Part shown: piece after piece, positions 1,137 through 34,363 of the stretch
Position numbering within the stretch: position 1 is the stretch's first letter
How the letters are laid out: every line of letters begins with the position of its first letter
NCBI GenBank assembly: GCA_002478275.1
Contig: DLMY01000015.1
Coordinates: 1 to 34,363 of the forward strand
Direction of reading: 5' to 3'
Length of the DNA stretch: 34,363 bases
Source of the DNA: Actinobacteria bacterium UBA7524
GTDB lineage: Bacteria > Actinomycetota > Coriobacteriia > Anaerosomatales > UBA912
Program-made: the position numbers and the translations under genes
The notes under the pieces: generated by a model
What the model was told of the DNA's origin: nothing
What the model saw: only the letters and a program-made list of their open reading frames with translations
The model's database searches: none

Positions 1137-1140
1137 CACC

Positions 1141-1668: not shown

Positions 1669-1687
1669 ACGATCGATCTTCTCCTCG

Positions 1688-3628: not shown

Positions 3629-3673
3629 TGGCTACCTTCGCACCCTTCTCATCTCGCGTTGCCCACGAGATGT

Positions 3674-4279: not shown

Positions 4280-4382
4280 GCTGAATGACACCTCCCAAAC
4301 CAGCCCGACGGGGTATGTCAGCCCCCACGCGCCGATGCTCCTGCAGCACGAAGGCATCGCCAGACGTGCGAAGACAAGCCCC

Positions 4383-4411
4383 ATGATATGCGGACAGCCT
4401 TAGTCTCTCAC
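4383..4411 (-). promoter_or_regulatory. Putative sigma70-type promoter for the Roadblock/DUF4388/GTPase module
   Basis: GTGAGA-17 bp-TATCAT on the minus strand in the 193-bp gap between pilB and the Roadblock gene. Confidence 0.4.
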
Positions 4412-16832: not shown

Positions 16833-18599
16833 TCAGTCGACCTTGAGATGCACCTCGCGCAGCTGTCGAGCTGAGACCGCATCGGGTGCCCCGGTGAGAG
16901 GGCAGGCGCCAGACGAGGTCTTGGGAAACGCTATGACGTCGCGTATCGACTCGGCTCCCGCCAGTATCATCACGAGGCGATCGAGACCGAGTGCGATGCC
17001 GCCATGCGGAGGAGCCCCGAACGAGAGAGCCTCGAGCAGGAATCCGAACTTGTCTCGCGCCTCTTCCGGGCCGATGTCCATGAGCGCGAGTATGCGCTCC
17101 TGCAGGACCGCGTCGTGCACACGTAACGTCCCACCACCGATCTCCAGCCCGTTGACGACCAGGTCGTAGCTGTACGAGAGCACGGTGCCCGGGTCAGTCT
17201 CCAGTACCTCCAGATGCTCGTCGAAGGGCCTGGTGAAGGGGTGATGGTTCGCCTGCCAGCGGTTTTCGTCCTCGTCCCACTTGAACAGCGGGAAATCGAC
17301 GACCCACAGCGGGTGGAAGCCCTCCGCATGCAGCCCGAGCTCCTCGGCAAGATGCACGCGCAGCACGCCGAGGACCTCGTTTGCCACGTCGTGCTCATCA
17401 GCGACCATCAGTGCGAGGTCACCCGGCTCGACGGCGAGAGTCTCGCGCAGCGCGACCATCTCGGCCTCGGTGAAGAACTTCGCTATCGGTGAGCGGACCT
17501 CCCCGTCGCTTCCGAACGCGACCCACGCAAGGCCCTTCGCGCCCGAGTCGATGGCCAGCTGGTTGAGCGCGTCGATCTTCCCGCGGCTGAAGTCCCCGGC
17601 GCCCTTGGCGTTGATGCCCTTCACGCGGCCACCGGACGCGAGCGCACCGGAGAAGACCTTGAACTCACTCTCGCGGAACACATCCACAAGACAATGCAGC
17701 TCCATCCCGTACCGGGTGTCTGGACGGTCGGAGCCGTAGCGATCCATCGCCTGTGCGTAAGTCATGCGCTCCAGCGCTTCTGGCCACGGCGCGCCTGCAG
17801 CTTCCATGACCTCGGCCATGACGTCTTCCATCATCGAAAGCACGTCGTCTTGCGTCACGAAGCTCATCTCGATGTCCACCTGCGTGAACTCGGGCTGACG
17901 GTCGGCGCGCAGGTCCTCGTCGCGGAAGCAGCGCGCGATCTGGTAGTAGCGCTCGACACCGCCCACCATGAGCAGCTGCTTGAAGAGCTGTGGCGACTGA
18001 GGCAACGCGTAGAACTCGCCCGGGTTCAGGCGGCTGGGCACGATGAAGTCCCGCGCGCCCTCAGGCGTGGATTTCGTGAGGATCGGTGTCTCGACCTCCA
18101 TGAACCCGCGCTCTTCGAGGCTGCGGCGGAAACGCTGGGTCACCCGGTCGCGCAGCGTGAGCGCGGCTAGCATCTCCGGGCGCCGGATGTCGAGATAGCG
18201 CCAGCGAAGGCGGGTCAGCTCATCGACATCGGTCTCCTCGGCGATCTCAAAGGCGGGCGTCTCGGCGGTGTTGAGCACCTCTGCCGAGGAGACCGCTACC
18301 TCTATCTCGCCGGTCGCCAGGTTCGGGTTCGCTGTGCCCTCGGGACGCTCGCGGACGGTACCATCGATGCGCACGACCCACTCGGGGCGCAGGCGCTCTG
18401 CAAGCGCGAACGCCTCGGATACGGCGGGGTCGAAGACGCACTGCACGAGCCCCGTGCGATCGCGCAAGTCGACGAAGATCAGTCCGCCGTGGTCCCGGCG
18501 GCGGTGCACCCAGCCGGCAAGCGTGACGGCGGCGCCGGTATCGGAGGCGCGCAGGGCGCCGTTCGTGTGAGAACGCATGGAGTAACGTGCGTCGAGCAT
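16833..18599 (-). CDS. aspS: Aspartate--tRNA ligase, probably non-discriminating (Asp/Asn)
   Basis: GWVHRRRDHGGLIFVDLRD, TPEGARDF, ALPQSPQLFKQLLM, FRDEDLRADRQPEF, PPHGGIALGLDR. The His in RRDHGG is the anticodon-domain residue associated with ND-AspRS. AGGAGG RBS before ATG 18599. Confidence 0.97.
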   Translation of the reverse strand: MLDARYSMRSHTNGALRASDTGAAVTLAGWVHRRRDHGGLIFVDLRDRTGLVQCVFDPAVSEAFALAERLRPEWVVRIDGTVRERPEGTANPNLATGEIEVAVSSAEVLNTAETPAFEIAEETDVDELTRLRWRYLDIRRPEMLAALTLRDRVTQRFRRSLEERGFMEVETPILTKSTPEGARDFIVPSRLNPGEFYALPQSPQLFKQLLMVGGVERYYQIARCFRDEDLRADRQPEFTQVDIEMSFVTQDDVLSMMEDVMAEVMEAAGAPWPEALERMTYAQAMDRYGSDRPDTRYGMELHCLVDVFRESEFKVFSGALASGGRVKGINAKGAGDFSRGKIDALNQLAIDSGAKGLAWVAFGSDGEVRSPIAKFFTEAEMVALRETLAVEPGDLALMVADEHDVANEVLGVLRVHLAEELGLHAEGFHPLWVVDFPLFKWDEDENRWQANHHPFTRPFDEHLEVLETDPGTVLSYSYDLVVNGLEIGGGTLRVHDAVLQERILALMDIGPEEARDKFGFLLEALSFGAPPHGGIALGLDRLVMILAGAESIRDVIAFPKTSSGACPLTGAPDAVSARQLREVHLKVD

Positions 18600-18726
18600 G
18601 ATCGAGTCCCTCCTGGAGTCACTGAGTCACCCAAGGATAGCCGAAGGGAGCCATGACTTCAGCACAAGACACCCATCGGATACAATCGGTGTGGCCTGGT
18701 ACCCCAAACCCACACGAGGTCCCGCC

Positions 18727-21057
18727 GTGACGCAACGGCCCCTGCCTTTCTCTACAGACCGTGTCGTCTTGTTCGTGCTCGCCGTCATGGGCGCCGTATC
18801 GCTCGTCTATCAGGTGACCTGGACCCGCCAGCTCACGACACTACTGGGCTCTACGGTCAGCGCCGTCGCACTGATCACCGCGATGTTCATGCTCGGCATG
18901 GCACTGGGCGCGTGGCTGATGGGCGCCCGAAGTGATGGGCCAGGCAGGCCACTGCGTACGCTCGCTCTGCTCACGGGTGGCCTGGGAGTCACGGGACTGA
19001 TCGCGATCCCTCTCTACGATCTGGCGTCGCGCGTCTACGTCTCGGGCTTCCTGGGCACCTCACGCCTCTCTCTGCTGGTACTCGGGGCCGTTCTCGCCGG
19101 GGCGATGACACTTGTGCCGACCGCCCTCGTCGGTGCAGGCTTCCCTGTAGCCTCGCGAATCCTGTCGATCCACCGTCGGGACATCGCATCGGGAGTAGGT
19201 TCTGCATACGTTGCAGGAACCATAGGGTCAGTGACGGGTGCCCTGGCAGCCGGTTTCGCCCTCGTGCCCGGACTCGGGGTCAACATGACCATCATGGCCG
19301 TGGCCGCGCTCAGCGCTGCAGCCGGTGTCGCGCTTCTCCTGATGAACGGTCGCATACCGGAAGATGTCGAGGCTCTCGCGCCCACCACCGAGCCGGACCA
19401 GGGGCAATCAGCAGACCGTCACAGCGACGATCACCTCACCCGGCGGCCCGCTCTGGTGGCGTTCGTGCTGTCAGGGGCTTCCATCATGATCTATGAAACG
19501 GTCTGGGCAAGGGAGCTTCTGTTGGTCTTCGGCGCCAGTGTCTATGCCGTCGCAACCATGCTTGCCGCCGTTCTCAGCGGCCTGGCGATAGGACAGTGGC
19601 TCGGCAGCCGAAATGCGCAAGGCCGCCATGGAGCGCTGGGGACGATCGGCTTGTTGCAGCTGGCAGGTGCGGGTGCGGCCCTGTTATCGCTTCCTCTCAC
19701 CAGAGCAGTCCCCTTCGCGTACTTCGTTGCGCGCGCGGTGATCCCCGGTAACCTCGCAACGTTCGCCGCAACACAATTCGCACTGACGTTCGTCGTGGTC
19801 GCTGCCCCCTGTGTGCTGCTGGGTGCGACAGCGCCCATCGCCACACGCCTGGCTACTTCGACCCGAACGTTCCTGGGCAAGGATATCGGTCTGGCGTATG
19901 CCCTCAACACTTTCGGCGCGGTCGTGGGCTCGCTTATCGGTGGGCTGGTCCTGATGCCCCTGTTCTCGACCGCGGGAACCGCGATCGCAGCCGCAGCGCT
20001 GAACACGACTGCTGGGATGATCGCGCTACGAAGGGTGATGGCGCTGGATGTCGTGCGCAGGGCTCGCCTGGCACAAGCCGCGATGCTCCTGGCCGCCGGC
20101 GCTGCATCACTGCTATTCGTCAACAGTGCATCACCGTTACTCAACCTGGCCGTAGGCCGTGCACATCACTCAGGTGACATCCGCCAGTTGCTCGAGTCGG
20201 TCCGAATGATGAACGTCGTGTACGCGAAGGATGCGCCTCAGGGCCGCGTCGCAGTCTACGAGGACCCTGTGGGCGCACGCTCCCTGTACGCCTCTGGTAT
20301 GAACGAGGGTGCGCATGGATTCCAGGACATGCAGACGATGGAGCTCATCGTACGCATTCCCGTCGCAAGTCACGGTGAGATCGGCAGCGCGCTCGTCGTA
20401 GGACTGGGAACGGGAACCACATCGCTCCTGACACTCAGCGCGCCCGGTGAGCCGGTCGTCGACACCGTCGAGATCAACCCGGCTGTCGTCGAAGCGTCAC
20501 GTTACTTCATCGACACGATCCTGGAGACCCATCCTCGATCCAACATCATCCTTGACGACGCACGCCATCACTACACGACCACCGATATGCGCTATGACCT
20601 GATCGCGTCAGAGCCCAGCTACCCACTCTCCACCTATTCGGCACGGATGTTCACACGCGAATCACTCGAAGCGGCGTACCGCATCCTCAAGCCCGATGGC
20701 GTCATGCTCCAATGGTTGCCTGCCTACCTCATGGACGAGGAGGACCTGCTCATGATGACCAAGACTTTCGGGGAGGTCTTCCCCCAGTCGCACGTTTGGG
20801 TCACATACGTACCCGGCACGACGAACAGGGTCGACTACATGTTGGTGGGCGTGCACGGCGACTTCGAATTCGACCCGCCGGCAGTCCGCGAGTCGATACT
20901 GGAAAGCGGCGGGGACATCTACGAGTTCGAGCACATCATGGGGCCTGACGAGATCACCGAACTCGTGGAAGACCCCTCGATTCCTTCGAACACTGATGAC
21001 CGACCCATCTTCGAGTACCGGGCGCCGCTGCGCTACCTGCGGGCGGTGTGGGACTAA
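18727..21057 (+). CDS. Fused multi-TM (MFS-like) / spermidine-synthase-like SAM-binding domain protein
   Basis: Two homologous TM halves (SLVYQVTWTRQL..LLGSTVSAVA vs IMIYETVWAREL..VFGASVYAVA), then VVGLGTGTT, VEINP, DDAR, YDLIASEP, NTDDRPIFEY. Likely GTG start at 18727 (GAGG RBS; TACAAT at 18681-18686). Confidence 0.88.
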   Translation: MTQRPLPFSTDRVVLFVLAVMGAVSLVYQVTWTRQLTTLLGSTVSAVALITAMFMLGMALGAWLMGARSDGPGRPLRTLALLTGGLGVTGLIAIPLYDLASRVYVSGFLGTSRLSLLVLGAVLAGAMTLVPTALVGAGFPVASRILSIHRRDIASGVGSAYVAGTIGSVTGALAAGFALVPGLGVNMTIMAVAALSAAAGVALLLMNGRIPEDVEALAPTTEPDQGQSADRHSDDHLTRRPALVAFVLSGASIMIYETVWARELLLVFGASVYAVATMLAAVLSGLAIGQWLGSRNAQGRHGALGTIGLLQLAGAGAALLSLPLTRAVPFAYFVARAVIPGNLATFAATQFALTFVVVAAPCVLLGATAPIATRLATSTRTFLGKDIGLAYALNTFGAVVGSLIGGLVLMPLFSTAGTAIAAAALNTTAGMIALRRVMALDVVRRARLAQAAMLLAAGAASLLFVNSASPLLNLAVGRAHHSGDIRQLLESVRMMNVVYAKDAPQGRVAVYEDPVGARSLYASGMNEGAHGFQDMQTMELIVRIPVASHGEIGSALVVGLGTGTTSLLTLSAPGEPVVDTVEINPAVVEASRYFIDTILETHPRSNIILDDARHHYTTTDMRYDLIASEPSYPLSTYSARMFTRESLEAAYRILKPDGVMLQWLPAYLMDEEDLLMMTKTFGEVFPQSHVWVTYVPGTTNRVDYMLVGVHGDFEFDPPAVRESILESGGDIYEFEHIMGPDEITELVEDPSIPSNTDDRPIFEYRAPLRYLRAVWD

Positions 21058-22899: not shown

Positions 22900-23180
22900 T
22901 TAGGCATCCCCCGAGGGGGCTCGTAGAGTGCTGCCCTACCGGGCCAGGCAGGTCCGGTGACACCTCTCTTCTCAGCAACCCCGGACATCCGGTCGCCTAT
23001 GGCGAGCATTTCCTCGACAGCGCGGATCCTGCGCCGTCTCGCAAAGTCAGCGTCGAGCAGGGCGTCTATAGCCTCGCGTATAAGCTCGGATTCCGTACGT
23101 CCCGAAGCGGCCGCGTGCTCTTTGAGCAGCCGCTCCTGGCGATCGTCTATGTAGACCTGTTTGCGCACCATGCGTCCCAT
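22896..23180 (-). CDS. Ribbon-helix-helix (CopG-type) antitoxin
   Basis: MVRKQVYIDDRQERLLKEHAAASGRTESELIREAID is an RHH pattern; directly upstream of the PIN gene. Start at 23180 or 23171. Confidence 0.88.
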   Translation of the reverse strand: MGRMVRKQVYIDDRQERLLKEHAAASGRTESELIREAIDALLDADFARRRRIRAVEEMLAIGDRMSGVAEKRGVTGPAWPGRAALYEPPRGMPK

Positions 23181-23250
23181 GATGACCCACCTGCCTTGCC
23201 GAAATCGAAACAGCGTCCAACCCCTGCCGTAGTCAGCGTGTGCTCGCTCC

Positions 23251-23291
23251 GCGATGTATAGTATACATCGCACCACCACTACACGTGTAGT
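23251..23291. promoter_or_regulatory. Two palindromic operators overlapping the putative vapBC promoter
   Basis: GCGATGTATA-G-TATACATCGC (23251-23271) contains TATACT on the minus strand; ACTACACGTGTAGT (23278-23291). Confidence 0.7.
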
Positions 23292-23325
23292 ACCCGTCTC
23301 GCATGACATGAACTGTGATGCGCCC

Positions 23326-23355: not shown

Positions 23356-23727
23356 TCAGGACTCGCCGGTAGCCGCAGCTTCGATAGACCGCTTTACGCG
23401 GCGCCACATCACCACACCGGCTACGACCGCAGCAACCTCGACTACGTGCTTCACCGCGATGGCGGTCACTAAGTCCCCCCTTACGGCACCGAGGTCATGC
23501 GTATTGAAGAAGATCACGCGCGGAACGCCGCCGATCACCACCCACACAAGAGCCCCGATCGCGAACTTCGTCAGCGTCGGATAAGACCGTGCCAGAACGG
23601 CGATCTCCTCGGCGGAACCGCTTCGGGCCCTGCGTCCGAGCACCCACATGATCGCGGCTGCGGCCACCAGCACGGCCGTGGCCACGTCGTGGAAGTAGTT
23701 GTTCATGATGATGAGGATGTCGAACAT
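23356..23727 (-). CDS. Small membrane protein (about 3 TM) with two helix-associated His (NNYFHD, AVKH); CopD/DUF4149-like topology
   Basis: 123 aa, three hydrophobic segments; the ATG directly abuts the ccsA stop. Confidence 0.75.
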   Translation of the reverse strand: MFDILIIMNNYFHDVATAVLVAAAAIMWVLGRRARSGSAEEIAVLARSYPTLTKFAIGALVWVVIGGVPRVIFFNTHDLGAVRGDLVTAIAVKHVVEVAAVVAGVVMWRRVKRSIEAAATGES

Positions 23728-24591
23728 CTACCTACCTCGTCCCATGTCGACGTCGAAACTGCCGATATCTCTGAACAGATGATACGAACTCGGCAGGAGC
23801 TGGACACCCCAGAAGCTCATCATCACGCCGAAGAGCGCCAAGAACGCCACCCAGGCGAGCCTGGGACCTCGCCAGCCGAGCGTCAGGTAGGCGTGAAGGT
23901 AGAAGGCGTACGCAAGCCAGGTCAGCAGACTCCAGGTCTCAACGGGATCCCAGCGCCAGTAAGAACCCCACAGCTCGTACGCCCATATCGCACCTGACGC
24001 GATCATCACGGCATTGACGACGAATCCGAAAGCCACGAGCCTGAAGGTGATCTCGCGCAAGCGCTCGGGCCCCGGGGCCTTGTCGAGCACCGAGCCGGGC
24101 ACACTTCGCGCTCCACGCCTGGCCTTGAGCAACTCGATGCCCGCCAGCGACGCGGCGGCCACGTATCCCGCGTACGTCGCCCAGGCGAACAGGACGTGGA
24201 TCACGAGCCACACACTCTTGTACGGGGGGGTGACGGGTCCTGCCTCGGCTGGTACGAGAAGGCCGTAACCGATGGTCAGTAGCACGAACGGCATGACGAT
24301 AAGCCCCGCCACGCGGGTCTTGCGGTAGACGAGCGCCACCACGAGGTACGTCAAGACTATCGCCCACGTGCCTGACAGCGCGTTCTCGTAGTCCTGTACG
24401 TAAGGGAGCCGTCCGGTCGAGGTCCAGCGCGCGATGACCGATGCGGTCTGTGCGGCGAACCCCACACAGGTGACCATGAACGCCGAGGAGACCAGCTTCT
24501 CGCGCGCGAATACGACGCCTGCGGTGTACAGCAGTGTTGCCGCAGCGTAAGCCAGTGCGGCGAGCCAGAAGGAAGAGGCCTCTATCGTCAT
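23728..24591 (-). CDS. ccsA: System II cytochrome c synthase subunit CcsA/ResC (copy 1)
   Basis: RW..TGRLPY..YE, WLVIHV, WGSYWRWDPVETW (WWD domain), YAFYLH, SYH. Confidence 0.95.
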   Translation of the reverse strand: MTIEASSFWLAALAYAAATLLYTAGVVFAREKLVSSAFMVTCVGFAAQTASVIARWTSTGRLPYVQDYENALSGTWAIVLTYLVVALVYRKTRVAGLIVMPFVLLTIGYGLLVPAEAGPVTPPYKSVWLVIHVLFAWATYAGYVAAASLAGIELLKARRGARSVPGSVLDKAPGPERLREITFRLVAFGFVVNAVMIASGAIWAYELWGSYWRWDPVETWSLLTWLAYAFYLHAYLTLGWRGPRLAWVAFLALFGVMMSFWGVQLLPSSYHLFRDIGSFDVDMGRGR

Positions 24592-26042
24592 CGCGGTTCC
24601 TCTCCGTCTCGCAGACGGTTGCTGACGGCACCATCTGTGCCGGCCACATCCGTGTCCGCACCGCTCTCATCGCCCACATCACCGGTCACGACTCGAACAC
24701 CCGGCTGTCCCTCGAATTCAGCGTACAACCGTCTCATCTCGCGGGGCGCATGCGCACTCCAATAGCGCTGCTGACCCCACATCCGAAAGACCGGCTCCCC
24801 ATCAAACGTGTCAGGTACGACTGCCACCTGCCTGTCCGGGTCGAGGAAACGCATACATGCCCCGACTATGACGAGCAGGAATCCCAGATAGACGATGTGG
24901 CGGCCCCCGTCGGCCCGGACCATGAAACGGTTCCAGAGCCGCACTTCTTTGATAGTGACCGTGTACCCATCCCTGTCAGTGGACTGTCCCGGTTCGAGCC
25001 ACACGTAATCGCGCACCGACTCCTGTCTCCCGGCACGCACACCGACGACCGGCTCACGTAGGTCGAGTCCTCGCTCCACCGGTTCATCAACCGGGCGCGA
25101 GGAATCCGGGCGAGACAACAGGCGTATCTCAAGCCCGTCAACGTCCAGGGAATCTGAGTATCCCTCAGGCCCACTCTCCCCCATATTGACGAACGAGTCG
25201 AACAGCGAGGCTCCGTCCGGCCCTGCGACACTCACCCAAACGGCATGTCCCGTGTCGTAGAGCAGGAACGACTTCCCGTCCACCAGAACGGGGTAGTTGA
25301 CCCTTCCCTTGTCCTCGCGACTCGCACCGGCATCCGAGACGACCATGTGCGCCACGGCGTCCACGATAGTGTCGCCTTCGTACTCGAACTCCATGCGCTC
25401 CAGCGCGATCTGGAACTCACCGAACTGGGTCCCCCAGCGGGGTACCTGATCGATATGGAGGTACGACTCGGGCACGTCAGCCACCGTTTGTCCCTCGGTC
25501 AGGACCATCTCTCCGCGAAACGCCGTCAGGCCGCTCACGACGCCACCCGCCGCGAGAATCACCAGCGCCGCATGAAGAATCACCGAGCCCCAGTAGCCCG
25601 TGGTTCCTCGGCGCACTACGTAGGCGAGCAGCCCAAGGGGTGATCGCGTCTCGATCGCGCTCAGCGATCTCATCGATCGCTCGACGGCATCCGGATCCAG
25701 CCCATGGATGACCATGGCCTCAGCGGGAACCGTGCCGATGGTGGCTGCGCCCATCACTCGCCTGCGGCGAACCATCCGCCGCAGAGTGCACACAGTCAGG
25801 TTGAGGGCCAGCAGCGCTGCAACGACGTAGAAGAGGAACGAGGAGAACAGCGCGTCGAGACCGGCGGTCGCAACGAGCCATCCGAGTGCGTCCGGCAACA
25901 TGGCGAGGAACTCGTCCACCTGCTCGGGGGGATAGATGCCGCGCTGAGGCACGAGGAACGACAGCACGAGAAACCCGAGCAGGATGCCGATGAGCCAGCC
26001 CGCCAGGCGCACGGAAGCCAGGAATCTCATCATGCGTCTCAC
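24588..26042 (-). CDS. ccsB: System II cytochrome c biogenesis protein CcsB/ResB (copy 1)
   Basis: RFLASVRLA..VPQ, FSSFLF..LNLTVCTLRR, WGSVILHAAL (TM His), VNYPV..DG, C-terminal TM; ATGA coupling to ccsA. Confidence 0.9.
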   Translation of the reverse strand: MRRMMRFLASVRLAGWLIGILLGFLVLSFLVPQRGIYPPEQVDEFLAMLPDALGWLVATAGLDALFSSFLFYVVAALLALNLTVCTLRRMVRRRRVMGAATIGTVPAEAMVIHGLDPDAVERSMRSLSAIETRSPLGLLAYVVRRGTTGYWGSVILHAALVILAAGGVVSGLTAFRGEMVLTEGQTVADVPESYLHIDQVPRWGTQFGEFQIALERMEFEYEGDTIVDAVAHMVVSDAGASREDKGRVNYPVLVDGKSFLLYDTGHAVWVSVAGPDGASLFDSFVNMGESGPEGYSDSLDVDGLEIRLLSRPDSSRPVDEPVERGLDLREPVVGVRAGRQESVRDYVWLEPGQSTDRDGYTVTIKEVRLWNRFMVRADGGRHIVYLGFLLVIVGACMRFLDPDRQVAVVPDTFDGEPVFRMWGQQRYWSAHAPREMRRLYAEFEGQPGVRVVTGDVGDESGADTDVAGTDGAVSNRLRDGEEPR

Positions 26043-26045
26043 CGT

Positions 26046-27602
26046 CTACTCACCGGCAGGGCGCACGATGCGCCAAGAATCGACTGTTCGCAGCGCGTAC
26101 TCCTCGAAGGGATTCGCCCTGACACCTTCCAGTCCCCTGGACAGGACCGACTGCTCCCTACGTTCGTCCCACTTCACGACGTGGAGTTCTTCGAGCCTGG
26201 CCCAGGCAGCCGCCAAAGCCGCTCGCAGCTCTCCGGGATCGCCTGCGTCACGCATCGCGTCTGCATGCCGATCGAGTGTGTCGTCAGAGACTCGCGAAAG
26301 GTTGAGCCCCGATACGTTCTCGTTCGAGGGGACGTCCTCGCTCCGGTATGGCCACGCCCATCCGTACGGGATGCCGATGGGGAACTCCAGGAGCGCGATA
26401 TCGAACTGGCCGATCGCGGCGAACCCTTCACCCGCGTAGTCCGTATAGGGGAACGTCGGGTACTCCTCGACCCGGCCGCCGAATGACTCCATGTCGATGT
26501 CCTGGATCCGATCGCCTTCCTCGGCCGACATCGGGTTGAACACCACCGCGATCTCCAACTCCTCGCCGTCTTTCTGACGGTGCCCATCGGGCTGCAGGCG
26601 CCAGCCGGCGTCCTCCAGCGAGGCGTCGAGAGCGTCCCTGTCTTGTAGCGGTGGAGAGATCGGGAAACCATAAGGGCCTTCCTCGGCGGGTTCGACGGAG
26701 ACGGTGGCCAACGCCGAGAAGGCCTGCCGTACGGCGAGATCGGCGGTCGGACGACCATCGGAGAGATTCATCACGAATGCCTGCCAACGGGAGCTGGGCA
26801 CCGAGTCGAAGCCCTCACTACCCACCGGGCCTACCGGGGGTGAGAGCCAGGCGCCATTGACGACAGACTCCCAAACCGTCCGTGCATTCGCGTCGTTGTC
26901 CATGAAGACGATGGTGACTCGCGGCATCGTATCGTCGACAGGGGTGACGTCCACCTGGATGCCACGTAGGTGCCGAGTAACGGAGCGGTCCCTGGAGCCG
27001 ACAGGATGGATCCAGAAGTCATCAGAAAGCAGGTCGGGCGAGTCAGCCAACAGGTGTTTCGGCATCACGTACGGGACGAATCTCCACGCGAACGGGGCAT
27101 CAGGATCGGCCAAGGTCAAGCGGACGGTGTGCTCGTCGAGGGCGACGACCTCACTCACCTCAGAGACCCGGACACCTGGGTCATCGCTCAGGATGCCTGC
27201 ATCGATCAACTCCCACGTGAACACAACGTCATCCGCGGTCAGGGGTTCTCCGTCCGCCCACTCGGCCGTCTCGTCGAGACGATAGGTGATCTGCGTCCGG
27301 TCTGCGTTCATTCCTCCGTTGGCCACAGTCGGCACTTCCACCGCCAGATCAGGTACGGGCATACCCCTGTCATCGACGGCGAACATCCCACGAAACAGTA
27401 GCGCGCCTATCTGGCGGCTCGACAAGACGTTCGTATACGGATTGAGATTCACGCCGGGAGGACCCACGAGCACTGTGATGAACGGCGGCGGCGCCTCGAT
27501 GTCTGAGACGTCCGGCACGCAGCCGGCGAGAAGCATCACCGCGCACAGCAATGAGACGCCGATTGAAGCGCGCAAGCGCCTAGTCGAGATGGTGAATGAC
27601 AA
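26046..27602 (-). CDS. Family 5 (peptide/nickel/heme class) ABC substrate-binding lipoprotein with no adjacent permease or ATPase
   Basis: TTG start at 27602 after AAGGAGG; lipobox LAGC; LNPY..LF.GM..PVPDLA.EVPT..NGG..YRL...WADGEPLTADDVVFTW..ALDEHTV is the family 5 signature. The C-terminal half is divergent. Confidence 0.85.
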   Translation of the reverse strand: MSFTISTRRLRASIGVSLLCAVMLLAGCVPDVSDIEAPPPFITVLVGPPGVNLNPYTNVLSSRQIGALLFRGMFAVDDRGMPVPDLAVEVPTVANGGMNADRTQITYRLDETAEWADGEPLTADDVVFTWELIDAGILSDDPGVRVSEVSEVVALDEHTVRLTLADPDAPFAWRFVPYVMPKHLLADSPDLLSDDFWIHPVGSRDRSVTRHLRGIQVDVTPVDDTMPRVTIVFMDNDANARTVWESVVNGAWLSPPVGPVGSEGFDSVPSSRWQAFVMNLSDGRPTADLAVRQAFSALATVSVEPAEEGPYGFPISPPLQDRDALDASLEDAGWRLQPDGHRQKDGEELEIAVVFNPMSAEEGDRIQDIDMESFGGRVEEYPTFPYTDYAGEGFAAIGQFDIALLEFPIGIPYGWAWPYRSEDVPSNENVSGLNLSRVSDDTLDRHADAMRDAGDPGELRAALAAAWARLEELHVVKWDERREQSVLSRGLEGVRANPFEEYALRTVDSWRIVRPAGE

Positions 27603-28782
27603 CCGCCAGCCCTCCTTCGGTCTCCCGGATGGAGTAAAGGCCGTCTTCGCCCAGGCGCATCGGCATCCGTCCTTGCCATGCCGAGACGTACGAGAACGGC
27701 ATGATGATCGTCGAATCGACAGTGGCATCGAGATCGATCACAAGCACCTCGACATGTGGCTCGTTAGCCGAGATCCAACCCGCAGCGAGCTGCCGTGGAC
27801 GACCGCGGTCGACCTGGGGCTCGGTCGCGAGGTAGAGGCGCGAGTCGCCATCCACGCCGAGCAAGCGATAACGGCGCGGCACACGGATGCTGCGACCCTC
27901 GGAGCCCACCAGTGTGACCACATCACTCACGGTCGGCTCCAGCCCCAAGACCCTCGTTGCGAACGTGTAGGGCTGTCCGTCCCACCCGTACCCCCACAAC
28001 TCCACCGCGCCTTCATCAGCAGCGACGTCATCAACCTGGACACCGTCTCTTGCGACGGGGATGAGCACGTCCCGGGAGTAGATGACCTGCTCCTGATGAT
28101 CCACGTCTGACGGCGTCGCTGAGGCATACAAGACGCCCTCGGAATAGCTGAGACCACCACTGTTGATGCTCAGGGGAATCGTGTAAGTGGTCGCGACCGA
28201 ACGTTCGATGTCGAACAGCACGGCCCTCTCGCTCGGACCTCCGGCCTTAGCGACCACGTAGTTGAAGCCGCCCGGATGCGGCCGGAAGTGCGTGGACCCG
28301 CCGGGCGCATCATGCCTGCCGAGGAGTTCTCCCCGCGCCGAGAACCAACGCACACGAGCACCGAAGACATCGGCGGGATGGTCGACCACGAAGATGGCCC
28401 CTTCCGACCCGAACACCGCCTCTATGGTGGACCTGGTCGCCAACTCACCNNNNNNNNNNNNNNNNNNNNNNNNNNNNNNNNNNNNNNNNNNNNNNNNNNN
28501 NNNNNNNNNNNNNNNNNNNNNNNNNNNNNNNNNNGTGGACCTGGTCGCCAACTCACCGAGCCGAGTGGCATCGAGAGGACCATCGCCCCACGGCAAGAAC
28601 AGGATCTCCTCGGCAGGCCTGGAGGACCCCCTGACGGTACCCAGGTCGAGATCGACGTAGTCCGCTTCAGGCTGATCGATATCTTCCTGCGAGCCCGAGA
28701 AGAAGGTGATCACCCCAACGCCGAGAACGGCCATTACGGTCACGGCGGCGATGACCAGCTGTTTGCGGTAGCGTCGAATCAC
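27580..28782 (-). CDS. N-terminally anchored extracytoplasmic protein, possibly a degenerate NHL/beta-propeller (about 364 aa once the gap duplication is removed)
   Basis: Basic N-terminus plus TM helix; repeated short beta-strand patterns (EGAIFVVD..RVRWFSARGELL, EGVLYAS, GVDGDSRLYL, GEDGLYSI). Confidence 0.7.
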   Translation of the reverse strand: MIRRYRKQLVIAAVTVMAVLGVGVITFFSGSQEDIDQPEADYVDLDLGTVRGSSRPAEEILFLPWGDGPLDATRLGELATRSXXXXXXXXXXXXXXXXXXXXXXXXXXXXXGELATRSTIEAVFGSEGAIFVVDHPADVFGARVRWFSARGELLGRHDAPGGSTHFRPHPGGFNYVVAKAGGPSERAVLFDIERSVATTYTIPLSINSGGLSYSEGVLYASATPSDVDHQEQVIYSRDVLIPVARDGVQVDDVAADEGAVELWGYGWDGQPYTFATRVLGLEPTVSDVVTLVGSEGRSIRVPRRYRLLGVDGDSRLYLATEPQVDRGRPRQLAAGWISANEPHVEVLVIDLDATVDSTIIMPFSYVSAWQGRMPMRLGEDGLYSIRETEGGLAVVIHHLD

Positions 28783-28797
28783 AGTCTCGAGACTCCT

Positions 28798-29595
28798 CTA
28801 GTACGGCTTGACCAGTGGGATATCGAAGAAGTGCCAGGTATCAGGGAAGAACGACCACACGAAGTAGGCGGCGATCAACAGCGGCAAGACAAGCAGGACT
28901 GCCATATCGAAGCGTCTTGAACCCCAACGATAGAAGAGGCGCCCATGTATCACCACCCCATAGCTCAACCAGGTGACCAGAGCGAGGGATTCAACGATGT
29001 CCCACTGCCAGAACGTACCGAACAGTACGAACGAGTACCATGCGCCTGTCGCAAGCATGCCGGTGAAGCCTGCATAGCCGATCATGAGCAGTTCGGTCAT
29101 CAGGTCATCGGACCGCTCGGCGGGAAGGCCGAGCGGGCGCCCGCCGATCACGCGGACTGCGGCGAGCGAGGTCACACCAAGGAACGATACGAGCGCTATC
29201 CATGCGAAGACCGCATGGATGTCCACCCACAGCGACTGTTCGGAGATCGTGAGAGGGACAGGCTCCGAACGGAACTGGAGGCCGTAAGTCATCGAAGCCA
29301 AAGCCCAGGGAACAGCCATCCTCCACAAGTCTTCGAGATCCCTCCTGACAAAGCCCACGACGGTCGCGGTGGCGAGAAGCGCCCATGCGAGCGTGTAGGT
29401 GTTCTCGAAGGTACCGAAGATGGGCGCATGCCCTGAGACGGCCCATCTGACCGCAAGCCCGAGAGTCGCAGACAGCGCTGCAGCTGTGGTGGAGAATCGC
29501 CCAAAGCGCAGAGCGGACCGCCACTGAAGTGCGATGACGGACAGAGCCACCGCGCCGGCTGTGAGCGACAAGGTAATGATGTGCAGTGCGCTCAT
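28798..29595 (-). CDS. ccsA: System II cytochrome c synthase subunit CcsA/ResC (copy 2, divergent)
   Basis: RWAVSGHAPIFGTFE, QSLWVDIHA, FGTFWQWDIVES, YGVVIH, TWH. The true start is probably ATG 29786 if the N gap collapses. Confidence 0.9.
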   Translation of the reverse strand: MSALHIITLSLTAGAVALSVIALQWRSALRFGRFSTTAAALSATLGLAVRWAVSGHAPIFGTFENTYTLAWALLATATVVGFVRRDLEDLWRMAVPWALASMTYGLQFRSEPVPLTISEQSLWVDIHAVFAWIALVSFLGVTSLAAVRVIGGRPLGLPAERSDDLMTELLMIGYAGFTGMLATGAWYSFVLFGTFWQWDIVESLALVTWLSYGVVIHGRLFYRWGSRRFDMAVLLVLPLLIAAYFVWSFFPDTWHFFDIPLVKPY

Positions 29596-29782
29596 GGCCG
29601 TGCTCNNNNNNNNNNNNNNNNNNNNNNNNNNNNNNNNNNNNNNNNNNNNNNNNNNNNNNNNNNNNNNNNNNNNNNNNNNNNNNNNNNNNNNNNNNNNNNN
29701 NNNNNNNNNNNNNNNNNNNNNNNNNNNNNNNNNNNNNNNNNNNNNNNNNNNNNNNGCCTCATGGCCGTGCTCATCGCCGCGC

Positions 29783-31069
29783 TCATCCCAACACCCCTGC
29801 CTGACGGGCCAGCCGGATCAGGCGCCCGCGTCCGGCTTCCCTCCCCCTCATGTCGGTCCAACCGTCGATCATGAGCCCCTCATCCGTTTCCCAAGCCATC
29901 ACGTCATGTCTACGCAAGAAGAACCGCCACGCAAGACCGATGAGCGTCATCAACAGCGACAGCAGCACGAGAGGCAACCCGGGTGCCGTGGTCAGCCGGA
30001 AGGTCCCGTACCGGGACAGCTCGGGGACGCTGATCTCGTAACCGTCGACCGTAAGGGAGTCCCCTAGTCGCAGGAGTTCTCTCGCCTTCAGTGGTCCTGC
30101 TCGATCACCAGTCTGAACGGACATCAGGAACGCCGGTTCGACGATGTTGTACGACATGGAGACGTTACGGCCGTCGACGACACCGTAATCCGGGTATGCG
30201 ATCAACGACACGTACAGTGGAGAGACCGGGATCTCGGCACTGTCCTCGGTACCGGGCGGTGAGAGGTTCATTGCTATCACGTGCTCCTCGCGCTCTCCTG
30301 CCCAATCGACGACCGCGATGTGTGGCGCAAGGTTGTAGTCCTGGATGCTCAAGACACGGACAGGATCGATCCAGTAAGGCCTGGCCAAAGAGAATTCCTG
30401 CTGTGTGCCCGCAGGCGTCTCGATACGAGCTGTCAGGCGCGTGAACAGCAGGACGTCCTCATAGTACTCAGGCGTGATCGAGACCAGCCGGTGATGACGG
30501 ATCGATGACGGCAACAGGAGTTCCTCTTCGGCTGTCCACCCGGCCTCAGCGAAAGTCTGCCCTTCTGTGACACGTAGGCTTACGGATTCCACTGTCGCCG
30601 AATGGAGTGCGAGGGACAGTCCAACAGCCACGATGCCCACGTGAAACACCGACCCGCCGAGGAGAGAATAGCGGTTCACGGTCGCCCGGAGTGCTTGATC
30701 CTCACGCGTCACCCGATAGCCCTGTGATCGGAGCCATGCTTCAATATCGTCGCTGCCCACCGGAAACGGGCCTTGTGCTGCCTCGGTGGGCGTAGGCCGG
30801 ACCGAAGCATCGCGTCGGCGCCAGTCCTTCTTGATCCGAGAGTAGGTGCAGACTGTGGTGACGACCGCTGTGGCGAGGTAGACGATTCGAAGAGCGAACC
30901 AGTCCTCGGCTATCGCCTGCACCGTCGCCTTGCTCTGGCCGGTGAACTGGAACGGCACAAGCCACACAAGGGTCAGGACTATCCAGGCTCCGATGACCCA
31001 GAAGGACACCGCCCTCGAGCTGAGGAACAGACGTGCACGAGTAAGAAACCGAGCAACAGTGTCCGACAT
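29783..31069 (-). CDS. ccsB: CcsB/ResB-like protein (copy 2, divergent)
   Basis: Same layout as copy 1: FLSSR..TM..Q, TTVCTYSR, GGSVFHVG (TM His), VTEGQTF, large soluble domain, C-terminal PG-TM. Start at 31069 (ATG) or 31078 (TTG). Confidence 0.82.
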   Translation of the reverse strand: MSDTVARFLTRARLFLSSRAVSFWVIGAWIVLTLVWLVPFQFTGQSKATVQAIAEDWFALRIVYLATAVVTTVCTYSRIKKDWRRRDASVRPTPTEAAQGPFPVGSDDIEAWLRSQGYRVTREDQALRATVNRYSLLGGSVFHVGIVAVGLSLALHSATVESVSLRVTEGQTFAEAGWTAEEELLLPSSIRHHRLVSITPEYYEDVLLFTRLTARIETPAGTQQEFSLARPYWIDPVRVLSIQDYNLAPHIAVVDWAGEREEHVIAMNLSPPGTEDSAEIPVSPLYVSLIAYPDYGVVDGRNVSMSYNIVEPAFLMSVQTGDRAGPLKARELLRLGDSLTVDGYEISVPELSRYGTFRLTTAPGLPLVLLSLLMTLIGLAWRFFLRRHDVMAWETDEGLMIDGWTDMRGREAGRGRLIRLARQAGVLG

Positions 31070-31093
31070 CTTGTCCAATCGAGAGTCACACGC

Positions 31094-31128
31094 CCCCTGC
31101 CCGTCCCAGGAAGGCGGGCGGGCAGGGG
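31094..31128 (-). terminator. Strong GC hairpin between the cytochrome gene and ccsB (terminator or mRNA stabiliser)
   Basis: CCCCTGCCCGTCC (31094-31106) pairs with GGGCGGGCAGGGG (31116-31128), 10 nt after the stop; no U tract on the coding strand. Confidence 0.65.
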
Positions 31129-31138
31129 TTCTGCTGGA

Positions 31139-34100
31139 TCAGTACGAGTACTGAAGTTCAGTATACGTGTCCGGCGTGTGCTTGATACAGGCTGAGTAGT
31201 TGTCCTGCGGGAAGGTCGTGCTCTTCTGCAAGGTGTAGCAGCCAACTGTCGTGGTGCCCTTCTGATGCTGACTCCAAGAGGCGCCGTTCAGGAAGCGTTG
31301 GCCCATGTAGTTGGCTGCACCCGTATAGGTCGAGGCGCCCGGAGCGTAGGTCATGCTGCTGCCGTGGATGGCACCTGACTGGACTACCGTGTTCGCGGCG
31401 AAGTTGAAGGAGTTCTCGTCCTTGCGGCCGCCGTGACAGTGTAGACAACTCGAGAATTGCAGCGCCGTGCTGTTATAGGTGCCTGTGTTGTAGCACGAAC
31501 TCGACATACGGTTGTGGTTCATTCGAGACAGGAGTGAAGTTGGCGACGAGGGAATGGCGTTGTTCTGGCCATAGACGTCAGCTCGGTGGCAGTTCACGCA
31601 GAAGTTCGCGCCGGCAGTTGACGGCGGGTTGACCACGGAGCCGTTCTGCAACGTAGTCTTGACGTTCACGTCCACGCCAGTGAGTAGCCAGCGGTTGGTC
31701 GAACCGTGCGGTCCCGACGGGCCTGTCGGGTCGTTGTTGTTGTGACAATCGGTGCACACCACAACGCTCGTCGTCAGCCAGCCATCGGTGAACGTGTTCG
31801 ACAGACCGTTGTTGTTCGTCTCACTCGCGCCGTCGTTGAGGCCGTTGTTGTTGTAGTCGATCCACTTGCGGGCGGCATTACTCGCCCAGGCAGGGTTCGC
31901 GTTTGTGGCGGGCTGGTTCAGGCCCTGTTTGAAGATCGGATGGTATGAGAGGTTCATCGGGTTGAAGTCACGTCCGACGTCGGTCTGCTTTCCACCGGTC
32001 TGGCCGGCGAGGTTGACCGAAACGTTCGGCGGAGTGGTCGTGTATGCCCACGCAGAGTGGCACTTCAGGCAGAGCTGCCACTGATAGGACGATGAGTTGA
32101 CCTTGGAGTACGTCGGAGCCGACGGGTTGCCGCTCGTGCCCGAACCGTTCCAGGTGCCGTCGGCGTTCGCGCCTGTGATGTTCACACCCCAGACACCGAC
32201 GTTGGCACCGGCTATCGCGGGCGGCGTGCTACCGCGGAACACACCGTTGCTCGGCCACGGCGTCCGGCCTTTCTGGGCGGCATGGACGTTATGGCAGTCT
32301 TCGCACTCGACATGGCGGTTACTCGCGGGGTTCCAGCCGGAGGCGGTGCTCTCGTCGGTCTTATGCACGCCTGCCTTGGCACCGACAGGATGCGTATAGG
32401 TCTTCGCGAACTGTGCTTGGATGTTGCGGGAGTTGGCCGTCATCGCCGTGCCGCCCGGATTGACGCCGTAACCGTCAGGGCCCGCGCTGCTGCCGAGGCC
32501 ATGGCACTTGTAGCACAGGTTCTCCTCGGTAGCCGTACTCGAACCGGCGAGGGCAGCTCCAAGCGCCTTAGCGAGACGGTCTTCGGCGGACTTGTGCAGA
32601 CCGAGCTTGTAGGTCGAGCTCATCTTGCTGCCGGTGTCCATCTCGTCGTCGTGGCACTTGATGCAGTTGGCCCGGAAGGCGGTGCCGTCATTGAATCCGA
32701 CCCTGGCCGCATCGTTGATCACGTAATTGTGAGCGGATGCGGCATAGCCGGCTCCTGAGATCGGCGGAGTCGCCGCCGACCCACCTGTCTTCTGCTTGCT
32801 GACGTCCTTGATGCGAGTGGTGCTGTGGCAGCTGACGCAGATTCCGTAGTCACCACTGGCGATGAAGTCGGTGTTCGTGGCATTGGTTGGCGCTCCGCTG
32901 TTGTCGTTGATGCTGACTCGCAGGTTGTTCGCCTTGTTGTTCGGCCCACCTTCGGGAGTGAAGTTGTGGTGATCGGTGTGGCAACTCACGCACGTCAGGT
33001 TGTCCTTGCTCGTCGGGTAGGAGGGATTGTCCTTGGGGGCCTGTGTCGCATCGTCGAGCACGTGATGGAAGGTGGTCGTGTCACTGGTCATCGTCGCGTG
33101 GTTCGGATGACACGTGTTGCACGGCTTCCCGCCCTTGGACAATGCATGGGCGGCATCCTCGTAGTTCGGATGACAACCCGTCGGGCCGCCACACGTACGT
33201 TTGGCGGACGTCATGTCCTTGTTCTTGGCATCGTGGCAACCGGCGAGCGTGCAGCCACCACTCGCATTCCGATGCAGGTTGTGCAGGTCGAGAGGTTCCG
33301 TCCAGGTGTGGCAGCCAGACCTGGTGCACTGATCCGGGCTCGCAGGCTGCGTGCCCGCGACCGTCGGCGCAGTGGTCGCATTGTGCATGACCTGCGTTGC
33401 GCCGAGGACGCCTGACGCATGGCAGTGGTCGCAGCGACCGTTCCAGTTCGGCGCGGTTCTCTTTGCGATCTCGCTGACCGTGGCGTTGTAGTTATGGCAC
33501 TCGGTACACGTCACGTACGTGCCCTTGGTCTTGGAGCTGAAGCCGCCAGCGGCGCCACCGTGCCCTGCCCGCATGGCGAGGTCGTGGCAGTCGCCACATG
33601 CTGCTGAAGCGGTTCCTCCGGCGCCGACGTTACCCAGTCCGACGGTCGCGGTATGGAGCGAGGCGACATAGTGGCTGTCGACCGGTTCGACCGTATCGGG
33701 CGCGCCGACGAAGTTGCCGTCATGGCAACGGACACACTCCATGCCGGACCCTGCCTTCCAGGTCTCGTTCGAGAACGTGGGACTCGTATGGCAGGCGCCG
33801 CTCAGGCAGCCGCTGGAGGGGTGGAACTCGACTGCGGCGTTGACCGGCAACGGCGCGGTCACTCCGTGACAACCGGCTCCGGAGTTCATGCAGCCTGTCT
33901 CGGGGCCAGCACCGCTACCGTCACTGTAGTTGCTGACAACGGTGGCCTGGTGCAATGTGTCGTGAGCTGCGCTCGCGTGACAGGTGGCGCACTCGACGTT
34001 ATCGACCGTCGAACGGATGTCTGACCACCCATCTCCGCCGTGGCAGATGTTGCAGCCGTCGTTGGTCTTGCCGTCGATCGTCCCGCCGATCGTGGCCGGG

Positions 34101-34363
34101 TCGTGCTGGTCCTGAACATTCACGTAGGTGTGGCAGTCCGTACAGCTTGCGCTGGCCTCGGTCACGTGGAGCGAGCGATGCGTCGGGGCCGGATAGTGGC
34201 AACCTTCAGTGTTGCAGGTAAGCGTCGTGGGTACCGCGGTGTTGTCCTTGTGGCATGCCGCGCAGCTGAGCGGCTCAGCGCTCACGCTCGTGTGCAGTGC
34301 CGCGACATCATCCACCTCGTGGCAGCCACCGCCACCAGCAGGCTGGTTGACGGCGGTGACGAC
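31139..34363 (-). CDS. Giant multiheme c-type cytochrome (5' end outside the window; >1074 aa)
   Basis: The frame stays open to base 34363 (VVTAVNQPAGGGGCHEVDD...). I count 18 CXXCH, 4 CX4CH, 1 CX5CH and 1 CX6CH, plus many spare His for distal ligation. Lies next to the ccsBA genes. Confidence 0.96.
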   Translation of the reverse strand, partial: VVTAVNQPAGGGGCHEVDDVAALHTSVSAEPLSCAACHKDNTAVPTTLTCNTEGCHYPAPTHRSLHVTEASASCTDCHTYVNVQDQHDPATIGGTIDGKTNDGCNICHGGDGWSDIRSTVDNVECATCHASAAHDTLHQATVVSNYSDGSGAGPETGCMNSGAGCHGVTAPLPVNAAVEFHPSSGCLSGACHTSPTFSNETWKAGSGMECVRCHDGNFVGAPDTVEPVDSHYVASLHTATVGLGNVGAGGTASAACGDCHDLAMRAGHGGAAGGFSSKTKGTYVTCTECHNYNATVSEIAKRTAPNWNGRCDHCHASGVLGATQVMHNATTAPTVAGTQPASPDQCTRSGCHTWTEPLDLHNLHRNASGGCTLAGCHDAKNKDMTSAKRTCGGPTGCHPNYEDAAHALSKGGKPCNTCHPNHATMTSDTTTFHHVLDDATQAPKDNPSYPTSKDNLTCVSCHTDHHNFTPEGGPNNKANNLRVSINDNSGAPTNATNTDFIASGDYGICVSCHSTTRIKDVSKQKTGGSAATPPISGAGYAASAHNYVINDAARVGFNDGTAFRANCIKCHDDEMDTGSKMSSTYKLGLHKSAEDRLAKALGAALAGSSTATEENLCYKCHGLGSSAGPDGYGVNPGGTAMTANSRNIQAQFAKTYTHPVGAKAGVHKTDESTASGWNPASNRHVECEDCHNVHAAQKGRTPWPSNGVFRGSTPPAIAGANVGVWGVNITGANADGTWNGSGTSGNPSAPTYSKVNSSSYQWQLCLKCHSAWAYTTTPPNVSVNLAGQTGGKQTDVGRDFNPMNLSYHPIFKQGLNQPATNANPAWASNAARKWIDYNNNGLNDGASETNNNGLSNTFTDGWLTTSVVVCTDCHNNNDPTGPSGPHGSTNRWLLTGVDVNVKTTLQNGSVVNPPSTAGANFCVNCHRADVYGQNNAIPSSPTSLLSRMNHNRMSSSCYNTGTYNSTALQFSSCLHCHGGRKDENSFNFAANTVVQSGAIHGSSMTYAPGASTYTGAANYMGQRFLNGASWSQHQKGTTTVGCYTLQKSTTFPQDNYSACIKHTPDTYTELQYSY

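Follow-up and report, generated by a model that had tools for sequence, protein, structure and literature searches.

A putative dedicated cytochrome c assembly locus with canonical and divergent CcsBA pairs beside a giant multiheme cytochrome gene in Actinobacteria bacterium UBA7524

Cytochrome c biogenesis gene cluster 3 of Geobacter (Gmet_0571-0601 and GSU2880-2899) holds several unfused resB-resC pairs among genes for cytochromes of 14-35 hemes (Aklujkar et al. 2009; PMC2700814), along with radical SAM, acyl-protein synthetase, spermidine-synthase-related, NHL, and conserved hypothetical genes (PMC2700814, Table S5). The pairs are proposed there to be dedicated and their purpose is left undetermined, efficient expression of nearby cytochromes being suggested, and why metal reducers keep several CcsBA pairs is stated as an open question (PMC2700814); substrate recognition by CcsBA is likewise a stated open question (PMC10663686). 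Here we analyze the whole of a 34,363-nucleotide contig (DLMY01000015.1 of assembly GCA_002478275.1; G000:C24 in our numbering, hereafter the window) from the 1.81-Mb, 83% complete genome of Actinobacteria bacterium UBA7524, a member of the Coriobacteriia (order Anaerosomatales). We infer that one of its gene clusters is dedicated to System II (CcsBA) assembly of a multiheme cytochrome that is exported, very large, and most likely engaged in electron transfer at the cell surface. As far as sequence can tell, the mode of working is that of a dedicated System II locus of the Geobacter type, and a multi-synthase layout with large cytochromes has thus already been described.

Three further systems bear on the comparison. 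In the CcsBA of Helicobacter hepaticus (PDB 7S9Y/7S9Z), the residues LMPVL, W828, A829, S832, and W833 have been proposed as a pocket for the second cysteine of the heme motif (the C2 pocket; PMC10663686). Synthase activity is lost when W828 and W833 are changed to Ala or Cys, Ala variants of the WWD motif co-purify with wild-type levels of b heme, and W828 is modelled beside the heme 4-vinyl; Tyr and Phe substitutions are not among the mutants that the available text describes (PMC6299221). The NrfI (CXXCK) and CcsA1 (CX15CH) proteins of Wolinella succinogenes are dedicated, fused synthases that keep all conserved CcsBA features and both pockets (PMC10663686). Finally, isolates of the Anaerosomatales have 17-18 multiheme cytochromes per genome, some clustered with biogenesis genes, with Fe(III) reduction proposed and one isolate an obligate Fe(III) reducer (Khomyakova et al. 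2022; PMC9686372). Our genome shares their lineage type (Coriobacteriia), and the available text of that account does not mention a two-synthase locus, a divergent CcsA, or cytochromes of 3,000-5,000 amino acids (aa).

Eight genes, all on the minus strand, make up the locus, as an earlier note on the window had proposed: a 5'-truncated cytochrome gene (31139..34363), ccsB2 (29783..31069), ccsA2 (28798..29595), a gene for a membrane-anchored extracellular protein (27580..28782), a gene for a divergent family-5 solute-binding protein (SBP) lipoprotein (26046..27602), ccsB1 (24588..26042), ccsA1 (23728..24591), and a gene for a small membrane protein (23356..23727). That note's description of abutting or overlapping maturation genes also stands, with spacings along the row of 69 nt between the cytochrome gene and ccsB2, 15 nt between ccsA2 and the anchored-protein gene, a 23-nt overlap of the latter with the SBP gene (provided that the TTG at 27602, behind a GGAGG, is the SBP start), 3 nt between the SBP gene and ccsB1, a 4-nt overlap of ccsB1 and ccsA1, and 0 nt between ccsA1 and the small gene. 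Gene families were called with Pfam and TIGRFAM/NCBIfam cut-offs, and fold likeness was assessed by PDB profile search and Atlas scores. Two ResB genes (PF05140), two PF01578 genes, and SBP_bac_5 pass the Pfam cut-offs in the window; the open reading frames (ORFs) of 400 aa (anchored protein) and 123 aa (small protein) have no Pfam match.

Like Geobacter cluster 3, the window and its relatives have several resB-resC pairs by large cytochromes, together with radical SAM, LuxE-like, and spermidine-synthase-like genes. Unlike it, they have a monoderm actinobacterial host, cytochromes of 3,100-5,100 aa beside the conserved gene row in the relatives, and a propeller-SBP5 unit between the pairs. The likeness is one of gene content, no named Geobacter sequence being among the listed CcsA2 or small-protein matches. 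The earlier note did not know this gene set as a characterized system. The layout does have a precedent, in Geobacter; for the CcsA2 subfamily described below, literature searches (with most subscription papers outside their scope) found no published description.

Conservation of the row was surveyed in 146 genomes of the order, which include non-independent kin and several fragmentary assemblies. ccsB2 is present in 13 of them, the source genome included, and CcsA2-type genes occur additionally in G086 and G098, bringing genomes with CcsA2 to about 15. The order cytochrome-ccsB2-ccsA2-anchored/SBP-ccsB1-ccsA1 is intact on one contig in six relatives (G019, G058, G055, G128, G143, and G031) spanning five families other than the source's; it is in pieces in G008, G027, G034, and G086, lacks the two middle genes in G003, and has an inserted TPR gene in G037. 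A search by CcsA2 patterns alone gave 24 long metagenome loci, of which 18 also encode a canonical CcsA and 13 share the C-terminal domain of the window cytochrome. The conserved order, which had been set as a check on the earlier note, and the separate synthase clades described below both support its proposal that a monoderm lineage keeps a dedicated assembly line for a giant cytochrome. Variable extras in related loci are B12 radical SAM genes, a LuxE-like ligase, a spermidine-synthase-like gene, and a predicted exported protein of about 165 aa, found beside ccsB/ccsA in many loci (L136:7893-8402, L086, L088, L093, and others); the last has no NCBIfam match and is absent from the window and from G058.

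The pair farther from the cytochrome gene is conventional. CcsB1 is ResB-like (PF05140, 86.7 bits) and keeps TM-His1; CcsA1 (PF01578, 123.1 bits) falls in a cluster-specific clade and has three His and a canonical WWD motif, with W828, W833, W837, W839, D840, E843, and W845 (H. hepaticus numbering) all kept. CcsA1 scores 174 bits against TIGR03144, narrowly under the cut-off of 187.6. A ResB-like and PF01578 pair with four heme-ligand His and a canonical WWD, CcsB1A1 is by sequence criteria a System II CcsBA.

CcsB2A2, like CcsB1A1 and H. hepaticus CcsBA, keeps TM-His1, P-His1, TM-His2, and P-His2. CcsB2 (PF05140, 45.6 bits) has TM-His1 at H146, CcsA2 (62 bits against TIGR03144) has H127, H217, and H255, and the pairing of a ResB-like with a PF01578 gene recurs, ccsB lying directly upstream in 42 of the 47 metagenome loci with room. 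Unlike H. hepaticus CcsBA, the window genes are unfused, and CcsA2 lacks the canonical WWD/C2 pocket: Tyr187, Phe192, and Leu204 stand at the equivalents of W828, W833, and W845, and a PLTISE loop replaces the hydrophobic loop, falling on LMPVL in the alignment to PDB 7S9Y. Residues were compared between 62 CcsA2 and 55 canonical CcsA sequences (locus rows plus P0121-P0165). His is kept at all three positions in 62/62 CcsA2 sequences, and TM-His1 is kept in 14/14 CcsB2. At the W828 position Tyr occurs in 58 of the 62, a count that is circular since the split was drawn on that column; W833 is replaced by Phe in 49, W845 is never Trp, and the loop before P-His1 reads P-L-T-I-S-E with 52-58 of 62 agreeing per position (Glu119 in 58, Ile117 in 56). 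The E843 equivalent is kept in 45, window CcsA2 included, and Val or Ile occupies the K842 position in CcsA1 and CcsA2 alike, as in most canonical CcsAs examined. Because the new residues are themselves conserved, they point to selection for function and not to decay; CcsA2 was also considered as a pseudogene and rejected, its reading frame being open, conserved, and under constraint. That the two synthases are non-equivalent, as previously suggested, is borne out by these differences. Because the His are kept, the C2-pocket residues are replaced, and Ala variants elsewhere hold b heme, it is very likely that CcsB2A2 continues to move heme and engages its acceptor in a different way.

How differently is the question on which explanations divide. 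CcsB2A2 might make no thioethers at all and instead export heme for non-covalent transfer or for delivery to a non-CXXCH acceptor, for example the tethered propeller-SBP unit, the small His protein, or b-type sites; CcmC hands heme to a non-CXXCH acceptor. Retention of four His while two synthase-essential Trp are replaced would suit such an exporter, as would the b heme held by the WWD Ala variants (PMC6299221), the canonical CcsA in 18/24 of the long CcsA2 loci, the position of the small gene directly after ccsA2 in 24 of 52 loci with room, and the lack of any client motif that co-varies with CcsA2. We nevertheless consider it unlikely: the replacements are conservative aromatics with the E843 equivalent mostly kept, the SBP lacks an invariant heme ligand, the propeller-SBP unit and small protein are found without CcsA2, and CcsA2 is the sole CcsA in view at L080, L264, L266, and L268.

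The phylogeny of the synthases, another check set earlier, separates both window CcsAs from the other CcsAs of the genome. The genome has five PF01578 matches and four ResB genes: the two pairs in the window, one pair on contig C30, one on C46, and an extra PF01578 gene on C19. (The genome also has two DsbD/CcdA genes and about 20 multiheme ORFs; no CcmF-sized System I gene was seen in it.) In an IQ-TREE analysis of 44 chosen rows, support was 100/100 for CcsA2, 100/99 for CcsA1, 99/98 for the C30 type, and 100/100 for the C46 type, these trees having no outgroup and so defining sides of branches and not rooted clades. When the signature columns were dropped and a mixture model was applied to 30 rows, the CcsA2 branch persisted (100/99), and CcsB2 forms one clade (100/99, 28 rows). 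A constraint joining the order's CcsA1 and CcsA2 was rejected by the approximately unbiased (AU) test (p-AU 0.018), and with it CcsA2 as a local or recent duplicate of CcsA1. Relatives of CcsA2 were found at 20 loci from Bacillota, Nitrospirota, Deltaproteobacteria, Betaproteobacteria, and other Actinomycetota records, and further in Spirochaetia, Thermodesulfobacteriota, and 73 metagenome loci, some of which duplicate genome loci. CcsB2A2 is best filed as a distinct, cross-phylum CcsBA subfamily with the heme-ligand His of CcsBA and without its canonical WWD.

This history weighs on the idea that both pairs take CXXCH and that CcsB2A2 is a second, differently tuned synthase that speeds or rescues sites on a chain of 50-140 hemes. 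The neighboring cytochromes are of extreme size and most have CXXCH motifs only, loss of CcsA2 leaves the client without visible change, and Aklujkar et al. tie the Geobacter pairs to efficient expression of nearby cytochromes (PMC2700814), all of which such redundancy would explain. A plain duplicate is unlikely, however, to fix an acidic loop and a Tyr/Phe pair across Actinomycetota, Bacillota, Nitrospirota, and delta- and betaproteobacteria, and the pairs did not arise by local duplication; we rate redundancy as quite unlikely.

The presumed client is represented in the window by its C-terminal 1074 aa, the 5' part of the gene being lost at the contig end. This fragment contains 24 heme motifs (18 CX2CH, 4 CX4CH, 1 CX5CH, and 1 CX6CH), in agreement with the earlier count of at least 24 and far above the maxima of 2 CX2CH and 3 CX4-6CH in 2000 shuffles of the protein. 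It aligns over its full length to residues 3865-4939 of the 4,939-aa cytochrome of G128, so the complete protein is probably several thousand residues long. No end overlap that would recover the upstream contig was found in the genome, and contigs of sequencing run X1 (possibly the source of the DNA) extend only a few bases beyond. Contigs C23 and C2 end in open ORFs that match the N-terminus of the G128 cytochrome, and either one could be the missing start. The G128 gene (L067:3667-18486, G128:C1) is a single ORF in a one-contig genome and encodes 291 Cys and 142 motifs in all (98 CX2CH, 3 CX3CH, 20 CX4CH, and 21 CX5-13CH). Its 121 CX2-4CH motifs compare with the 113 given as the record in 2024 (PMC11492766).

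Other cytochrome fragments lie elsewhere in the source genome. Contig C46 (G000:C46:238-9975) holds a 5'-open cytochrome gene, a single canonical ccsBA, and then a gene for a 1,972-aa cytochrome with 52 motifs, and the ends of C2 and C23 carry further paralogous fragments; together these suggest a cytochrome array broken by assembly. A large cluster on C30 (G000:C30:2167-23253) combines a canonical ccsBA with eight multiheme ORFs and three NHL-like proteins, and two of its genes encode what we take, from reading the sequence, to be Rex-like regulators.

The earlier note proposed that the two synthases divide labor by motif spacing, one serving CXXCH and the other CX4CH, CX5CH, and CX6CH. Wolinella offers a model in its dedicated synthases for unusual motifs (PMC10663686), and the window resembles it in encoding an extra synthase beside the cytochrome, on top of general ones. 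The window cytochrome itself has six CX4-6CH motifs, and the cytochromes of G128, L300, and L302 have 44, 13, and 22 non-canonical motifs beside CcsA2. The wider survey does not bear the proposal out. Canonical (CX2CH) and non-canonical motifs in cytochromes beside ccsB2A2 number 49/0 in G019, 48/1 in G037, 75/0 in G058, 61/0 in G055, 75/0 in G143, and 98/44 in G128; 43/0 and 45/0 in the 5'-cut cytochromes of G034 and G008; and 55/0, 47/0, 47/0, 52/13, and 26/22 in five 5'-cut metagenome loci. A CX3-17CH motif is thus absent from the adjacent cytochromes of 6/8 relatives (G019, G058, G055, G143, G034, and G008), as it is from those of L280, L284, and L309. Conversely, CX4CH-rich cytochromes stand beside a single canonical CcsA in G016 and G047, a 1,290-aa cytochrome of G123 has 12 non-canonical motifs, none of these three genomes having a CcsA2 match, and the C46 cytochrome of the source genome, with 14 non-canonical motifs, has one canonical pair beside it. 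Unlike the Wolinella case, in which one unusual client motif co-occurs with its synthase, no motif co-varies with CcsA2 here, no CXXCK-type motif (CXXC followed by a residue other than His) occurs in the 13 giant cytochromes examined, and CcsA2 rewrites one pocket. Synthases act in trans, clients may lie elsewhere in the genome, and several relatives have CcmF-sized System I genes, which sets limits to the comparison; even so, division by spacing now appears highly improbable.

Attention therefore turns to the C-terminal domain of the cytochrome, whose extra conserved residues are Cys957, Cys1042, Cys1059, and His1062. Cys1042 and Cys1059 are invariant in 15/15 and His1062 in 14/15; the consensus over all adjacent cytochromes is H...CXXCH...GxxHG...R-F-x-N-G-A-x-W...C-X11-20-C-X2/3-H...Y. 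In G019, G058, G055, and G143, once CXXCH motifs and N-terminal regions are set aside, nearly all remaining Cys fall in this domain. PDB sequence searches with C-terminal domain profiles gave no meaningful relative, and a predicted structure of the last 520 aa was set aside at a predicted local distance difference test (pLDDT) score of 31. Within the order the domain occurs in 13/146 genomes, as does ccsB2, with both in 11; nine of the 13 domain-bearing genomes supplied rows of the domain profile.

We tentatively prefer, at somewhat short of an even chance, the reading in which CcsB2A2 serves the same cytochrome as an auxiliary synthase, making a non-standard attachment at a minority of heme sites. 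CcsB1A1, with its intact WWD, would attach most of the hemes, probably those at CX3-6CH sites among them. CcsB2A2, from an old and separately evolving subfamily, would still pass heme from the His pair in the membrane to the outer one and present it in a rebuilt second-cysteine pocket, and its leading candidate client would be the Cys957/Cys1042/Cys1059-His1062 region, the main source of non-CXXCH Cys in the all-CXXCH relatives. The pair would be dispensable in many lineages. In a bolder version, which we think unlikely if worth stating, CcsB2A2 would be a new activity within the WWD heme-handling superfamily: it would attach ordinary heme, or heme modified by the BchE-like enzyme, at a site that breaks the CXnCH rule, for example C-X11-20-C-X2-H, whose His is displaced from the second Cys, in the terminal redox center of surface cytochromes of 50-140 hemes in several phyla.

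Several observations weigh against an auxiliary role at this site. Two nearly complete genomes (G096, 98%; G123, 95%) have the domain, the propeller-SBP unit, and ccsB1A1 and no CcsA2. In a Nitrospirota sample of 251 genomes, 13 have the domain; CcsA2 is absent from 10/10 that were searched in full, G273 and G330 not having been so searched and G147 having CcsA2, and all 13 carry a canonical CcsA (E <= 1e-50 on the profile). Key domain residues are the same in 24 loci with CcsA2 and nine without. Seven paralogous cytochromes of G147 (L323-L329) bear the domain, three of them keeping both Cys and losing the His; in G002, G004, and G022 a related cytochrome at the same hisS position has a tail of the form C-X7-C-X2/3-H, with a single canonical pair present; and CcsA2 stands beside unrelated cytochromes or none at G098, G109, L257, L258, and L268. 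Since the domain is found without CcsA2, loses its His in paralogues, and has variable tails beside canonical synthases, its Cys pair may simply be a disulfide, and since Tyr and Phe substitutions are not among the described mutants, CcsA2 could keep ordinary synthase activity. Strict dependence of the Cys/His site on CcsA2 was accordingly rejected. Because the domain is present without CcsA2 and, in Nitrospirota, always with a canonical CcsA, it tracks, as judged from these genomes, the dedicated canonical pair, with CcsB2A2 an optional addition.

Two side observations concern these genomes. The ccsB2A2 genes of G147 are unlinked from its seven domain-bearing cytochromes, and in G096 a divergent ResB-like ORF without ccsA lies directly before the small gene (L212:2816-4290, G096:C1) and could be a remnant.

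The locus thus offers a natural variant in which the second-cysteine pocket appears rewritten and the heme path intact, and it encodes a canonical enzyme for comparison and a candidate client next to that variant. A family of very large cytochromes in monoderm subsurface actinobacteria is indicated as well, the expression of which will require matching maturation genes.

Between the synthase pairs lie the anchored protein, which has no Cys, and the SBP. The label 'propeller-like' given earlier to the anchored protein finds some echo in an Atlas score of 0.86 to NHL/beta-propeller clusters and a Pfam SGL match (E 0.066) in 2/10 homologues, but no beta-propeller match appeared in the PDB profile search. 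An HbpS match (E 1e-4) was discarded, as it starts within the signal/anchor region and extends over no more than the N-terminal ~100 positions. The SBP has a PF00496 domain (67 bits, matched mainly in its N-terminal part) and a lipoprotein signal with an LAGC lipobox, which place it in family 5; its PDB matches are peptide and metal SBPs, and it diverges fast, no His, Met, or Cys being invariant among 11 homologues. No cognate permease or ATPase lies beside it in the window, nor was one recognized in annotated related loci, so that 'orphan' is apt; the genome has one other SBP5. The two proteins form one polypeptide of ~900 aa in G031, G008, G027, G055, G128, G143, G123, and G086, and this fusion argues that they work together. 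The two genes persist without ccsB2A2 in relatives. Their products would act as a single unit tethered to the membrane, which probably serves as a chaperone that holds or folds the long apo-chain, a peptide-holding role being suggested for the SBP by its family.

The small membrane protein has invariant His13, Asp14, and His94 and is modelled as three helices (pLDDT 86.5); a fold search gave no match at E <= 0.001. Its likeness to CopD/HemJ is weak (Atlas 0.82-0.83, Pfam E 0.11), and the link to HemJ is our presumption. It belongs to a large unnamed family with at least 2,061 relatives at E <= 1e-10, the homologues with names belonging to Coriobacteriia, and is found in 88/146 genomes of the order, 74 at E < 1e-32. 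The 30 best loci place it beside hisS (19), a radical SAM gene (8), or ccsA (7), often with no ccs gene upstream. It is, on these distributions, a general companion of cytochrome/ccs loci. Of the three accessory genes singled out earlier, then, two form a unit that is fused in most relatives, and the third does not share a common unit with them.

The radical SAM genes of related loci raise the possibility that CcsB2A2 handles heme altered by a BchE-like B12 radical SAM enzyme, perhaps with LuxE-like and spermidine-synthase-like genes. Linked proteins score 432 and 388 bits on the BchE model TIGR02026, far above other families and below its cut-off of 481; such a gene lies within 8/24 long CcsA2 loci, and the position of W828 near the heme 4-vinyl (PMC6299221) would fit. 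The source genome has a BchE-like gene too (G000:C9:32032-33411, L225; 416 bits), unlinked to the window locus, and no LuxE-like match was found in it. The lineage is not known to be phototrophic, and unfamiliar tetrapyrrole chemistry is possible. BchE-like genes occur, however, in 95/146 genomes of the order (0/146 over the BchE cut-off), against about 15 with CcsA2, and often beside canonical ccsA only; a modified heme is accordingly improbable. The small protein (88/146) and the BchE-like gene (95/146) were both rejected as CcsA2-specific, and the BchE-like gene often lies beside ccsA and the small protein.

Some features of the window concern its assembly and expression. The earlier note recorded a single N gap in the cluster, where there are two. 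That at 28450-28534, inside the anchored-protein gene, is a scaffolding artefact, because the X1 contig skips 108 nt in frame there, leaving a protein of 364 aa. That between ccsB2 and ccsA2 (29606..29755) has a duplicated 15-mer on both flanks and, although no contig bridged it, is probably empty. Between the cytochrome stop and ccsB2, a GC-rich RNA hairpin lacking a U-tract (31094..31128, minus strand; -35.5 kcal/mol, z = -3.14, equal stability in 0/200 shuffles) may act to stabilize the mRNA that lies upstream of it or to attenuate read-through. A search for a sigma-70-like promoter gave none.

Outside the cluster, a fused membrane/spermidine-synthase-like gene (18598..21057, plus strand; NF037959 over cut-off) separates hisS from aspS on the opposite strand. 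Its G058 orthologue (59%) sits between ccsA1 and the small gene, and such a gene lies inside or immediately after the cluster in both G058 and G128. An RHH antitoxin and PIN (VapBC-like) pair is inserted at 22444-23309 between the small gene and hisS; the close relatives G058 and G034 show no such insertion there. At 3-4384, downstream of a type II/IV secretion ATPase, lie small-GTPase, DUF4388, and Roadblock genes, presumably MglAB-like.

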